A stretch of DNA of 32,000 nt from Candidatus Saccharimonadota bacterium. Its GTDB lineage: Bacteria; Patescibacteriota; Saccharimonadia; Saccharimonadales; UBA4665. Position 1 is the stretch's first letter. Each line of letters begins with the position of its first letter. Position numbers and translations under genes: made by a program. Shown in pieces: positions 14,161-16,574 of this stretch. The stretch lies in assembly GCA_016700375.1 (NCBI GenBank), contig CP065016.1, positions 1,050,001 through 1,082,000 of the forward strand, written 5' to 3'. The notes beneath the pieces are model-generated. The model had not been told where the DNA came from and did not search any database. It saw nothing but the letters and a program-made list of their open reading frames with translations.

Positions 14161-14163
14161 ATG

Positions 14164-14266
14164 ACCAACTACCAACTACCAAATTCCAATACATAAATTC
14201 CAATGAGCTTCATTTGGTAGTTGGTAGTTGGTATTTGGTATTTGGAGCGACCAGGGGGAGCGACCG
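14164..14266 (+). repeat. Heptamer-array hairpin element E1 (atpA-atpG spacer)
   Basis: A perfect 20-bp inverted repeat, ACCAACTACCAACTACCAAA (14164-14183) with TTTGGTAGTTGGTAGTTGGT (14213-14232), flanks a 29-nt loop. This is followed by (TATTTGG)x2 and then AGCGACC-aggggg-AGCGACC containing the SD for GTG 14267. The 38-nt core 14180-14217 is identical to 15171-15208. Confidence 0.92.
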
Positions 14267-15133
14267 GTGAGGCGGCCAAATGAAATCGCCAAAGATGAAG
14301 CCAGCATGGCAACACTAGTAGAGTTAACCAGTGTGTTTGAGGGTATTGCCAGTATGCGCATCGCCCAAACGAAAAATCAGGTTCTTGAGTCCACTAAATT
14401 CTTTGATGAAATCTGGAAAATCTATACCCAGCTTCGTGTCGACAGCCTGTTTAGCTTTGGGCGAGATGAAGGCAAGAGTCATACCATAATCGATAAAGAG
14501 CTTTATATTATCATTACAGCCGAAGGTGGTTTTAGTGGTGACATTGACCAAAAACTCGTGCAGTCCATGCTCGATAGTTACGATAAAGACAAGAACGACA
14601 TCATTGTCATTGGGCATCACGGCGCGATGCAGCTTTCGCAGCGAGGTGTTTCCTTCCGGAAGTATTACAAACTGCCCAGTAAAGACAAAAATATCAATGT
14701 TGCGCCCATTATTAAGGAAGTACAAGAGTACAAAAAATGCAGTGTGTTTTACCAGCAATATATATCCCTCATGAACCAGGAAGTGAAGCGAATCTCGCTT
14801 TCTATGGCGGTCAAAACTGCTGGTATGGCAAGTGATAAACCCGATGAGGTTATTAGTGAGGCAAACTATATTTTTGAGCCGTCTAGTTTCGCCGTTGCTT
14901 CTCACCTCGAGCGTTCTATGATGAAAATTGCGCTTGGGCAGTTGATACTACAGTCGAAGCTGGCTCAGTATGCTTCGCGTTTCCGTGCTATGAGTGCCTC
15001 GCACCAACGAGCCGACGAAGAAAAAGCCGACCTGCACCTTGCTTACAACCGGGCGCGCCGCGGCGTGAAAGACGAACGTCTAAAAGAGATTATCAATGGC
15101 ATGAAAAAGAGTAAAGCAGGAGTGGCAGCATGA
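14267..15133 (+). CDS. atpG: F-type ATP synthase subunit gamma
   Basis: Position between alpha and beta. The N-terminal helix (PNEIAKDEASMATLVELTSVFEGIASMRIAQTK) aligns with the gamma consensus (lkeIk.ri.sv.nt.kIT.AMemVa..K). C-terminal helix: YNRARRGVKDERLKEIINGM. Start set at GTG 14267 (SD GGGGGAG 7 nt upstream) instead of the track's TTG 14228, which lies inside the repeat. Confidence 0.85.
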   Translation: MRRPNEIAKDEASMATLVELTSVFEGIASMRIAQTKNQVLESTKFFDEIWKIYTQLRVDSLFSFGRDEGKSHTIIDKELYIIITAEGGFSGDIDQKLVQSMLDSYDKDKNDIIVIGHHGAMQLSQRGVSFRKYYKLPSKDKNINVAPIIKEVQEYKKCSVFYQQYISLMNQEVKRISLSMAVKTAGMASDKPDEVISEANYIFEPSSFAVASHLERSMMKIALGQLILQSKLAQYASRFRAMSASHQRADEEKADLHLAYNRARRGVKDERLKEIINGMKKSKAGVAA

Positions 15134-15137
15134 GTGG

Positions 15138-15257
15138 CCAAATACCAAATACCAAATACCAAATACCAAACAAATTCCAATACATAAATTCCAATGAGCT
15201 TCATTTGGAATCTGGAATCTGGAATTTGGAATTTGAAGCGACCGAAGGGAGCGACTT
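15138..15257 (+). repeat. Heptamer-array element E2 (atpG-atpD spacer)
   Basis: (CCAAATA)x4, then the same 38-nt core as E1 (15171-15208), then (GGAATCT)x2(GGAATTT)x2, then AGCGACC-gaaggg-AGCGACT containing the SD for GTG 15258. Confidence 0.92.
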
Positions 15258-16574
15258 GTGGCTGGCGTAGTAGTTTCCATAAAAGACCTCGTTGTGCGCG
15301 TACAATTTGACGCAGACCCACCCGAAATCAACGAAATACTCGCGGCCGACAACGAGCAGAAAACGCAACTGCTCGTCGACCATCTTGAGGTCGGCGGCAT
15401 TGCCTTTTGCCTCAATGTGCGAACAGACAGGAGCCTCCTAAAGGGCGATACGGTACAACGCACCGGCAAAGGGATTGAAGTGCCGCTTGGTGAGCCAACC
15501 ATTGGCCGCATTCTTAACGCCCTTGGCGACCCGCTGGACGGCCAGCCGGCCATTGGCGCCGACGAAGCAAAACGCAAAGATATCATGAAACTTCCGCCCC
15601 GGAGTAGTAATTTTACCGTGGCCAAACCAGAAATTTTGGAAACAGGCATAAAAGTCATTGACTTCCTGACTCCTTTTGTAAAAGGGCGAAAAATTGGGGT
15701 AATTGGAGGTGCCGGTGTTGGTAAAACCGTGACTACCATGGAGCTTATAAACAATACTGCCCAAGGCGGCGGTAAGAGTGACGGTAGCCTTTCTTTCTTT
15801 GCCGGCATTGGTGAACGTATTCGTGAAGGACACGAGCTGTGGGATACACTGCGCGAAAACGACCTGCTTAAGAACACCGTTATGTTCTTTGCGCAAATGA
15901 ACGAAAATCCGGTACAGCGTTCACTCATTGGTGTGTCGGCAACAGCTGCAGCGGAACATTTTCGCGATGAACTACACAAAGACATATTGTTTTTTGCGGA
16001 CAACATGTTCCGTTACATTCAGGCCCGCAACGAACTTTCGACCATTTTGGACCAGGTGCCAAACGAAGGTGGATATGAGCCTACTGTTTTCTCGGACGTG
16101 AAAGTTCTTCAGGACCGCTTGAGCGCGAACGAAAACGGCTCCATTACTTCGGTGCAGACTATTTACGTCCCAGCCGATGATATCTCTGACCCGGCAGTGC
16201 AATTTATTCAGCATGAGATGGACAGTATTATAGTGTTGTCGCGTAAAGTGGCCGAACAAGGCGTGCGACCGGCAGTTGACCTAACGCTTACAAACTCTAG
16301 CCTACTCACGCCGGAGATTGTTGGCGAACGACATTACCTCCTGAGTGTTCAGGTGCAAGCCCTGCTGCAGAAGTATGAGTCACTCAAAGGCATCATCGCC
16401 ATTATTGGTGAAAACGAACTGAGCCCTGCAGACCGAGCTGACTACGCCAAGGCTAAAAAGCTCATTACCAATTTCTCCCAAAACATGAATGTCATGACAA
16501 AACACAACGGCATAAAGGGCGATTACTTCACGCGCGAGGAAACCCTCAAGAGCATCGAAGAAATAATCATTTAG
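15258..16574 (+). CDS. atpD: F-type ATP synthase subunit beta
   Basis: Walker [62 protein letters not shown] start with SD AAGGGAG. Confidence 0.95.

Follow-up and report, generated by a model that had tools for sequence, protein, structure and literature searches.

The window analysed here is a stretch of 32,000 nucleotides from a Candidatus Saccharimonadota genome (contig CP065016.1, positions 1,050,001–1,082,000, forward strand), and all coordinates are window positions unless marked as genome. It carries an ATP synthase operon in which the identities of atpA, atpG, atpD and atpC were borne out by Pfam. Two of the junctions, atpA/atpG and atpG/atpD, are occupied by long spacers, referred to here as E1 and E2. 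The remaining junctions are tight, as the initial annotation had described: atpF and atpH overlap by 11 nt, atpH and atpA meet in an ATGA, and a 10-nt spacer separates atpD and atpC. The alpha subunit ends in a long, low-complexity C-terminal tail, with the TGA stop at 14158–14160.

12169–14160, plus strand: atpA, alpha subunit, 663 aa (ORF list; Pfam PF00006 and PF00306)
14161–14266, plus strand: element E1, a 106-nt insert from the ancestral ATGA to the new atpG GTG
14267–15133, plus strand: atpG, gamma subunit, 288 aa, GTG start (Pfam PF00231; N-terminus aligned in 30 relatives)
15134–15257, plus strand: element E2, a 124-nt insert from the ATGA to the atpD GTG (orthologue in MAG_MBR_AS.65, L091)
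15258–16574, plus strand: atpD, beta subunit, 438 aa, GTG start (ORF list; Pfam PF00006)

Anatomy of E1 and E2

The two spacers are copies of one element. They share a 90-nt direct repeat (14180–14269 and 15171–15260) with 84% identity, which includes a 38-nt core identical in both (0 matches expected by chance), and this identity points to a very recent copy. The heptamer arrays noted in the initial annotation were recovered in both elements, in the following arrangement.

14164–14184, plus strand: E1 left arm, (CCAACTA)2 + CCAAAT (inverted repeat of 21 nt, 100%; fold)
14180–14217, plus strand: 38-nt core, copy 1, a decayed CAAATTC array plus the hairpin loop
14212–14245, plus strand: E1 right array, (TAGTTGG)2 (TATTTGG)2, whose first 21 nt are the right arm
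14253–14260, plus strand: Shine–Dalgarno (SD) sequence of E1 itself, AGGGGGAG, 6 nt before the GTG, with AGCGACC flanks at 14246–14252 and 14259–14265
15138–15170, plus strand: E2 5' array, (CCAAATA)4 + CCAAA
15171–15208, plus strand: 38-nt core, copy 2
15203–15235, plus strand: E2 right array, (GGAATCT)2 (GGAATTT)2, pairing with the AAATTCC units of the core and the last CCAAATA units
15244–15251, plus strand: SD of E2 itself, GAAGGGAG, 6 nt before the GTG, with flanks AGCGACC at 15237–15243 and AGCGACT at 15250–15256

Tandem Repeats Finder (TRF) and a repeat search found head-to-tail heptamers in at least three copies: (CCAAATA)4.7, (GGAATYT)4.7 and (TAGTTGG/TATTTGG)4.6. Within the E1 left arm, ACCAACTACCAACTACC matches a portion of the right arm exactly in reverse complement. 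The core itself is a decayed (CAAATTC)n array plus a loop; the orthologous E2 of one relative has three CAAATTC units at this place.

Both elements carry the module AGCGACC-SD-AGCGACY-GTG. Initiation of atpG and atpD now uses an SD and a start codon supplied by E1 and E2, and copying between the two junctions has involved the entire cassette together with its SD and GTG. The SD/AGCGACC module of E1 is common to the metagenome contig L094 and to G015. It was rejected as a family-wide component: AGCGACC / GGAGCGAC is not enriched in the genome (37 occurrences versus ~38 expected), and among heptamer elements it is otherwise found only in the atpD2/atpC2 element at 276.5 kb.

A repeat family at ancestral stop/start overlaps

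E1 and E2 belong to a dispersed and rapidly changing repeat family, as had been proposed. A profile built from E1, E2 and their relatives found ~12 genome loci with nhmmer at E below 10–3, sharing the motif CCAAACAAATTCCAA. In the genome the exact core is present only at E1 and E2, but it has diverged paralogues, for example at genome 151804–151920, and there are ~10 further family members. With no exact or near-exact copy elsewhere in the genome, the core was rejected as a conserved motif. When a 23-nt part of the core was searched with up to 3 mismatches, none of 300 other genomes of the order gave a match, and one metagenome contig did. Family members also occur inside genes, for example as an insert in mnmA (26774–26896). 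The family is embedded in a far larger set of period-7 arrays in this genus of Saccharimonadales. At a TRF score of at least 40, the genome contains 83 arrays of period 7, versus 4, 7 and 14 of periods 6, 8 and 9, and CCAAATA/TATTTGG arrays lie at several further loci.

Comparison with relatives revealed that both elements are insertions into junctions that overlapped ancestrally. The atpA/atpG junction is tight in 24 of 29 relatives, 21 of which have a 4-nt [A/G]TGA overlap, and atpG/atpD junctions are also tight on the deepest branches. Upstream of every insert the context GGAG-N7-8-ATGA is retained, the same as where that ATG is a real start; at atpA/atpG, GGAG-N8-[A/G]TGA is likewise present in relatives whose ATG or GTG at that place starts atpG. 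The old initiation sites are still recognizable in the 3' ends of atpA and atpG, where they now serve the ATG codons at 14157 and 15130.

14145–14148, plus strand: ancestral atpG SD GGAG, within the atpA 3' end, 8 nt upstream of ATG 14157
15119–15122, plus strand: ancestral atpD SD GGAG, within the atpG 3' end, 7 nt upstream of ATG 15130 (context conserved in relatives)

[A/G]TGA stands on both flanks of the inserts, and the inverted heptamer arms are internal rather than strictly terminal. The flanking [A/G]TGA could be a target duplication, or simply the residue of selection for coupling.

Turnover at these sites is fast. Filled and empty sites were both seen, and lineages that are ~94% identical in DNA carry different elements at the same site: three such lineages show three states at atpA/atpG and two at atpG/atpD, all of them open in frame. 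An orthologous variant of E1 is present in L094; it differs from E2 by exactly three heptamers, by which the 5' array of E2 is the longer (21 nt). The clade is a polytomy and the three closest lineages are about equidistant in atpA/atpG, so that polarising the direction of copying between E1 and E2 on a tree was abandoned. The atpD flank and the ancestral-looking atpG/atpD element of L094 weakly favour copying from an E1-type element to E2.

Open reading frames, RNA structure and alternative explanations

The key property of both elements, unnoticed in the initial annotation, is that each contains a mini-ORF whose start and stop overlap or adjoin the neighbouring genes.

14157–14270, plus strand: mini-ORF 1, 37 aa, stop-free (translation; frame statistics in relatives)
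15130–15270, plus strand: mini-ORF 2, 46 aa, stop-free (translation; frame statistics)

Mini-ORF 1 starts in an ATGA overlap with the atpA stop and ends, with TGA, in a GTGA overlap with the atpG start. The ATG of mini-ORF 2 overlaps the atpG stop (ATGA), and its TAG begins 10 nt past the first base of the atpD GTG. Both mini-ORFs therefore show the geometry of termination–reinitiation, namely a stop/start overlap or a gap of a few nucleotides with an upstream SD. The other frames of E1 and E2 close quickly. In the E1 right array, unit 3 reads TAT where an in-frame TAG would fall, and L094 reads AAT there.

The frames were counted in 36 distinct spacers of at least 15 nt at atpA/atpG and atpG/atpD from 28 Saccharimonadales genomes. 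Three genomes with frameshifted atp genes and unreliable coordinates (L084, L085 and L087), the source of all six apparent bridging exceptions, were left out of the final count. Heptamer arrays occur in 14 of the 31 spacers of at least 40 nt, and many spacers are unrelated in sequence. Frame –1, that of the mini-ORFs, is open in 35 of the 36. The 36 represent fewer than 36 independent events, given the relatedness of the species and the ~15 initial nt and SD region common to several atpG/atpD spacers. Of the 72 other sense frames 18 are open (frame 0 in 11/36, frame +1 in 7/36), and of the antisense frames 43 of 108 (40%). When only spacers of 60 nt or more are counted, frame –1 is open in 29/29, versus 9/58 for the other sense frames (Fisher p = 1.6 × 10–15) and 26/87 for antisense (p = 2 × 10–12). 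Shuffled spacers predicted ~9 open in 40, and the summed log10 P over the first 25 spacers was –20. Spacer length is 1 mod 3 in 34/36, and [A/G]TGA is kept at the upstream stop in 36/36, versus 17% of gene ends in this genome. Spacers upstream of atpD in other classes of Patescibacteria were bridged in 0 of 10 cases.

In this genome, same-strand junctions were bridged in 20 of 42 cases with heptamer arrays versus 29 of 416 without (odds ratio 12, p = 7.5 × 10–11), a count that uses crude gene calls and includes mini-ORFs starting in the frame of the upstream gene just after its stop. Bridging as a general rule for same-strand junctions is ruled out, with 7% of the array-free junctions bridged. 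Since, by the same crude gene calls, about half of the heptamer-bearing junctions are unbridged, translatability is not common to all members of the family.

We propose that E1 and E2 are heptamer hairpin cassettes in stop/start overlaps that relay ribosomes by way of translated mini-ORFs and so preserve coupling, which the sequence comparisons make probable. At its upstream end the insert keeps the old SD and ATG, which now open a stop-free mini-ORF through both hairpin arms; at its downstream end it supplies a new SD and a GTG that is overlapped by the mini-ORF stop (GTGA) or lies 10 nt before it. Ribosomes finishing atpA or atpG would re-start on the mini-ORF, melt the hairpin while translating it, terminate on the following gene's start codon and initiate again at that site. 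In this way alpha, gamma and beta would stay translationally coupled despite an insertion of 106–124 nt that would otherwise break the coupling. As the elements are stop-free from the old start codon to the new, ribosomes can probably read across them. The sequences establish the anatomy, the insertion into ancestral overlaps, the family membership, the fast turnover and the nearly universal open frame of fixed phase; actual translation of the mini-ORFs, and coupling as the advantage under selection, we infer. The insert is most probably a passenger, either selfish or produced by slippage, of which only translatable variants would be tolerated. Both cassettes come with a good SD of their own where the RNA is weakly structured, so that translation of atpG and atpD might not depend on the mini-ORF. 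Rho-dependent polarity was discarded as a reason for keeping spacers translated, as no Rho RNA-binding domain was found in the 98.5%-complete single-contig genome. A lack of ribosomal protein S1 was likewise discarded as the cause of a dependence on coupling, since the genome encodes a 357-aa protein that has four S1 domains.

The initial annotation had instead looked to RNA structure. The E1 stem is indeed perfect, but it comprises 21 bp (14164–14184 with 14212–14232) around 27 nt rather than 20 bp around 29 nt; the fold has a ΔG of –33.4 kcal/mol (z = –5.96). The E2 left array, described as lacking a partner within E2, was found to pair imperfectly with the E2 right array through its last two units (ΔG = –22.4, z = –2.55). 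The E1 tail and the E2 left array were confirmed to be complementary (18 nt perfect, 33 nt at 94%). On these grounds E1 and E2 might be RNA-structure elements, with the hairpins and the E1–E2 duplex acting as sites of mRNA processing or stability, RNase III being one candidate enzyme, or as translation attenuators that set subunit ratios, and with the open frame incidental. The atpG/atpD element of L094 and the E2 of MAG_MBR_AS.65 are also very stable (z = –6.9 and –5.9), the genome encodes RNase III, and MITE hairpins cleaved by RNase III are known (NEMIS; PMC2229807).

However, the z values of the spacer hairpins range from –6.9 to +1.9. In close relatives the orthologous or alternative spacers are no more stable than shuffled sequence (z = +0.1, +0.6 and +1.9), or the junction is a plain overlap, and structure is therefore not the conserved feature. 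The long-range pairing that was suggested to loop out atpG is missing from both nearest relatives, and its arrays recur at other loci of the genome. This absence, together with the variation in hairpin strength, indicates that the conserved property is translatability. Control of the alpha:gamma:beta stoichiometry or of segmental mRNA stability through structure is likewise not supported, as sister lineages have no insert, unrelated inserts or shuffle-like folds. No terminator-like site was found in 14161–14266 or 15134–15257, a promoter scan gave nothing of note, and a scan of the elements against Rfam returned only generic-hairpin miRNA models (23–31 bits versus thresholds near 100), with no real family match. 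A structural role would also leave the 35 open frames, the fixed phase and the retained ATGA unexplained, and we regard it as unlikely.

Nor do we give much credence to the idea that the spacers are neutral selfish or slippage DNA, untranslated junk lacking stops through its composition or the way it was made rather than through selection on translation. Heptamers such as CCAAATA and AAATTCC are stop-free in any phase on both strands, turnover is fast, and a mutational bias towards heptamer slippage is known (PMC4692102, citing Mrazek 2007). Against this, just one of the three sense frames is systematically open, antisense frames are open at 40%, length is 1 mod 3 in 34/36, and [A/G]TGA is preserved throughout. 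Non-repetitive spacers of up to 273 nt follow the same open-frame rule, and TAG units have been changed exactly where TAG is in frame, by two different substitutions in two lineages.

A phase-variable switch, in which gain or loss of one heptamer would shift the frame of the mini-ORF and turn coupled translation of atpG and atpD down or up in a subpopulation, is very improbable. A 7-nt unit does cause a frame shift of one, the arrays have clearly changed within short evolutionary spans and the alternative frames of E1 and E2 soon close, but the alleles in the compared lineages differ in length by 3 nt, 21 nt or 0 and every one is in frame; the targets, moreover, are housekeeping operons (ATP synthase and ribosomal).

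Least credible of all, and scarcely worth entertaining, is that the mini-ORFs encode functional small proteins, to which the KFQYINSNELHL identical in both peptides might point, or that E1 is a –1 frameshift extension of the alpha subunit, as the GAG AAA AAA run 9 nt before the E1 hairpin (an A-run–spacer–hairpin arrangement at 14148–14184 resembling a –1 site, with the –1 frame being that of the mini-ORF) might suggest, since the peptides have no Pfam match, are unrelated between close relatives at the same junction and show no conservation beyond that of the DNA, and since the A-run occurs as well in species that lack an insert and is absent from E2.

Relation to known systems and implications

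The statement in the initial annotation that the repeats match no described class was too strong, as over-represented intergenic heptanucleotide repeats of bacteria have been published (PMC4692102, PMC4679880). Tandem heptanucleotides are reported from Calothrix PCC 7601, Nostoc (GGGGATT between pecE and pecF), Xanthomonas (GGGAATC) and Beggiatoaceae (TAACTGA) (PMC4692102, PMC4679880), and both papers cite Mrazek 2007 for a general excess of period 7. The arrays described here resemble these repeats in their tandem 7-nt units, usually in few copies, in the strong period-7 excess, in their intergenic and intra-operon positions, sometimes as inverted pairs, and in varying in length and sequence between close relatives. 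Unlike them, they form complementary hairpin pairs in many unit sequences, and lie precisely in stop/start overlaps, where they are kept as ORFs with overlapping start and stop. TAACTGA of Beggiatoaceae is the opposite case, containing stops in forward orientation and lying in untranslated leaders.

The bacterial MITEs that bear ORFs include the Rickettsia palindromic elements (RPE), ERIC/IRU, YPAL and the 107-bp Correia element (reviewed in PMC2229807). By description these too are dispersed hairpin repeats of ~100–150 nt with a contiguous open frame tolerated in translated sequence, with filled and empty sites between relatives and some members inside genes. They are, however, fused in frame into host proteins or untranslated between genes, whereas E1 and E2 are free-standing mini-cistrons, with start and stop on the stop and start of their neighbours and an SD for the next gene; their arms are heptamer-periodic and have no TA ends. 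REP/BIME elements, which are G+C-rich untranslated palindromes of 20–40 bp with a GTAG/CGTC head, were rejected as a match for the longer E1 and E2, which have A+T-rich arms and lie inside an open frame.

Translational coupling by termination–reinitiation at ATGA/TGATG overlaps has been described (PMC6728339; reviewed in PMC12548453, including the E. coli atp operon); its efficiency drops with stop–start distances below 20 nt, and ribosomes unwind structure (PMC12548453). The canonical overlap geometry at both ends of the mini-ORFs, the ancestral ATGA overlaps and an operon encoding one complex all agree with this. Known coupling joins two real genes directly, whereas here a disposable, fast-evolving mini-cistron would relay the ribosome across an insertion. 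We found no description in the literature of such a mini-cistron relay as a regular feature of a lineage. In plasmid leader relays of the repA/tap and repY–repZ types, a short ORF whose stop lies at or close to the start of the following gene must be translated for, or promotes, translation of that gene through structured RNA. These relays are conserved, regulated single loci, unlike the elements described here, which are present as dozens of interchangeable repeat copies without a conserved peptide.

More speculatively, Saccharimonadales may harbour distinct mobile 'ribosome-relay cassettes', a possibility that we raise only tentatively. Hairpin elements made of frame-agnostic 7-nt repeats would home to stop/start overlaps, take over the SD and ATG already there to open a disposable mini-cistron, give the displaced gene a replacement SD and start, and persist only while ribosomes can read through. 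If this is true, these reduced bacteria would depend unusually strongly on termination–reinitiation, and heptamer slippage, in which ±1 unit is a frameshift and ±3 units are silent, could tune or switch coupled operons.

The relay that we propose for E1 and E2 would mean that mobile hairpin DNA can be accommodated in gene-dense operons whose cistrons overlap while coupled translation is kept. It would leave a sharp and countable sign that selection acts on translation itself and not on the peptide, in the form of one open frame, a fixed phase and the retained ATGA. For annotation, such cistrons of 30–90 codons will probably be overlooked or entered as unnamed proteins, and it is easy to misplace starts like the GTG of atpG and atpD. 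The question of coupling becomes directly testable with simple reporters, and the pattern points to a strong reliance on termination–reinitiation in Saccharibacteria, whose genomes are reduced and whose rules of gene expression are almost unstudied.

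Organization of the atp junctions

The window contains an F-type ATP-synthase cluster with the gene order atpF-H-A-G-D-C, in which the alpha, gamma, beta and epsilon identities are backed by Pfam. Its atpA/atpG and atpG/atpD junctions are occupied by the heptamer-array hairpin elements E1 and E2, respectively (window coordinates):

14157-14270, mini-ORF 1
14158-14160, atpA stop
14161-14266, E1, 3' of the atpA stop
15130-15270, mini-ORF 2
15131-15133, atpG stop
15134-15257, E2, 3' of the atpG stop

E1 and E2 share an identical 38-nt core and form a 90-nt direct repeat (84% identity). 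E1 folds into a 21-bp perfect stem (dG -33.4 kcal/mol, z -5.96). The E2 hairpin is weaker and imperfect, with base pairing between its last CCAAATA units and the right array (z -2.55). The E2 5' array is complementary to the E1 tail over 18 nt perfectly, and over up to 33 nt at 94%. The initial annotation had the core, the arrays and this complementarity right, with small corrections needed to the E1 stem (given as 20 bp) and the E2 left array (given as unpaired within E2), and missed an open frame running through both elements.

Mini-ORF 1 is a 37-codon frame across E1, starting at an ATG (14157) that overlaps the atpA stop (ATGA) and ending in a TGA that overlaps the atpG GTG (GTGA). Mini-ORF 2 spans E2 with 46 codons, from an ATG (15130) overlapping the atpG stop to a TAG that begins 10 nt past the initial G of the atpD GTG. 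Both ATGs have a GGAG 7-8 nt upstream, within the preceding gene. Where the third TAGTTGG unit would put its TAG in frame, this genome has TAT, and L094, a closely related metagenome contig, has AAT.

The end of atpA (13600-14160) encodes a low-complexity acidic/lysine-rich C-terminal extension, ~190 aa past the conserved alpha-subunit domains and of differing length between relatives. At 14146-14184, the 21-bp E1 stem comes 9 nt after the A-run of GAG AAA AAA CCA TGA. A -1 frameshift site has this layout, and a -1 shift would lead into the mini-ORF frame; the arrangement is probably a coincidence, since the A-run also occurs in relatives without the insert.

The atp region was compared across 39 relatives and 61 named Saccharibacteria/Saccharimonadales MAG loci. 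This comparison of orthologous operons, proposed in the initial annotation, revealed filled, swapped and empty junctions: atpA/atpG is tight in 24 of 29 scorable genomes, with a 4-nt [A/G]TGA overlap in 21 of the 24, and atpG/atpD overlaps too in deep branches. The GGAG-N7-8-ATGA 5' of E1 and E2 matches genomes in which that ATG starts atpG or atpD. The tight ancestral overlaps and this shared context place the inserts behind the old start codon and ahead of the former second codon; the mini-ORFs have taken over the old SD and ATG, and the new SD and GTG come from the cassette.

Reading frame across the spacers

The set analysed comprised 36 distinct spacers, each 15 nt or longer, from both junctions in 28 genomes, three frameshift-ridden assemblies being left out. 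The bridging frame was defined as that of the overlapped ATG/GTG, open to within -4 to +10 nt of the next start. It was open in 35/36 spacers (fewer than 36 independent events, as the genomes are related to one another and some of the atpG/atpD spacers have common ends), compared with 11/36 for frame 0, 7/36 for frame +1 and 43/108 for the antisense frames; shuffling predicts ~9/40 open frames, and the summed log10 P is -20 for the first 25 spacers. For spacers of at least 60 nt, the bridging frame was open in 29/29, the other sense frames in 9/58 (Fisher p 1.6e-15) and the antisense frames in 26/87 (Fisher p 2e-12). Spacer length, at most 273 nt, is 1 mod 3 in 34/36, and the upstream stop retains [A/G]TGA in all 36, versus 17% of genes genome-wide. 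In a control count on the junctions of this genome, 20 of 42 array-bearing ones were bridged versus 29 of 416 array-free ones (p 7.5e-11).

Among the 31 spacers with a length of 40 nt or more, 14 carry period-7 arrays, with many different units in several genera, and the others have none. The atpA/atpG spacers of L026, L059 and L079, from other Saccharimonadales genera, have in common a G+C-rich non-heptamer element (GGGGAGAGCAGCCCGAG...GAATTTATTTCGCCCCC...GGGGG..CCCCTCTCAAGGAGG), up to 273 nt long and likewise open in the bridging frame. In other Patescibacteria classes, which served as a control, 0/10 spacers upstream of atpD were bridged; three of these classes' loci (L106, L113, L117) carry stop-rich, unbridged short-unit inverted-repeat hairpins there.

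Turnover and RNA structure

Both junctions differ among three lineages whose flanking DNA is ~94-97% identical, and all their alleles are open.

Junction alleles in the three lineages (atpA/atpG; atpG/atpD)
This genome: E1; E2
L094: E1 variant; unrelated (CAATTTT)4 hairpin element with another SD module
MAG_MBR_AS.65: unrelated AGGGCAA-type element; E2 with (CAAATTC)3 as core

The L094 E1 variant begins with the 5' end of E2 (ATGAGTGGCCAAATACCAAACAAATTCC...), with one CCAAATA instead of four, making it exactly 21 nt shorter. Comparison of these alleles shows that the 38-nt core consists of a heptamer array that has decayed and a loop, that the entire cassette including SD and GTG has been copied from one junction to the other, and that surviving copy-number changes are frame-preserving. 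The earlier interpretation was partly right, namely in proposing a mobile cassette with its own SD and start. The E1 left arm of this genome (ACCAACTACCAACTACC) matches the reverse complement of the pre-existing right arm exactly, a pattern that template switching at a quasi-palindrome would produce.

Folding z-scores of spacers
L094 atpG/atpD spacer: -6.9
E1: -6.0
E2 of MAG_MBR_AS.65: -5.9
L094 E1 variant: -2.6
E2: -2.6
MAG_MBR_AS.65 atpA/atpG spacer: +0.1
G015 spacer: +0.6
G023 spacer: +1.9

RNA structure is not the property conserved at these spacers. With z ranging from -6.9 to +1.9, the suggested structure-based control of subunit stoichiometry is wrong or at least unsupported. Neither of the two nearest relatives, L094 and MAG_MBR_AS.65, can form the proposed long-range E1-E2 pairing, and CCAAATA/TATTTGG arrays are present at further loci too. 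Scans of the two elements found neither a terminator nor a promoter, nor any genuine Rfam match. RNase III is encoded in the genome, and processing at the perfect E1 stem is possible. Rho polarity as the reason for a translated spacer was rejected, as Rho was not found in the genome.

The repeat family and its tolerance

The suggested genome scan uncovered an excess of heptamer arrays: 83 tandem repeats of period 7 (score at least 40) versus 4-14 for periods 6, 8 and 9. Most (73/83) have 4-5 units, none rounds to 6 and a few have 7-9, a distribution that would fit growth by frame-preserving three-unit steps, with a possible detection bias at the low end. A profile search with E1/E2 found ~12 related loci, one of them in a ribosomal-protein operon with a diverged core copy. 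In mnmA (26772-26829), an in-frame insert matched by the profile (nhmmer E 1.2e-5) precedes an 8-unit CCAACTA array, indicating that the family is tolerated within a protein as well. At G000:C1:246230-246700 and 364170-364630 of this genome, complementary AAATTCC/GGAATCT-type arrays surround a gene-sized loop of ~400 nt rather than a short one.

Outside the window, this genome has another atp operon of more canonical type (beta-like gene 276722-278011, gamma-like 278212-278847), with heptamer hairpin elements at two junctions (G000:C1:276528-276643 and 279073-279183, minus strand), which read as bridging mini-ORFs. One consists of (GGTATCT)n...(CCAAATA)4 followed by AAAGGAGCGACCT-ATG, with the SD module of E1/E2.

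Cyanobacteria, Xanthomonas and Beggiatoaceae are known to have an excess of heptanucleotide repeats (PMC4692102, PMC4679880). MITEs that bear an ORF, among them RPE, ERIC and YPAL, have been reviewed (PMC2229807), and coupling at ATGA overlaps is documented (PMC6728339, PMC12548453). Keyword searches of the literature returned no account of hairpin repeats retained as relay cistrons in their own right, nor anything about repeats in Saccharibacteria. We infer that the mini-ORFs are translated. E1 and E2 are most likely tolerated mobile or slippage inserts, which persist only as predicted translated bridges that preserve coupled translation.
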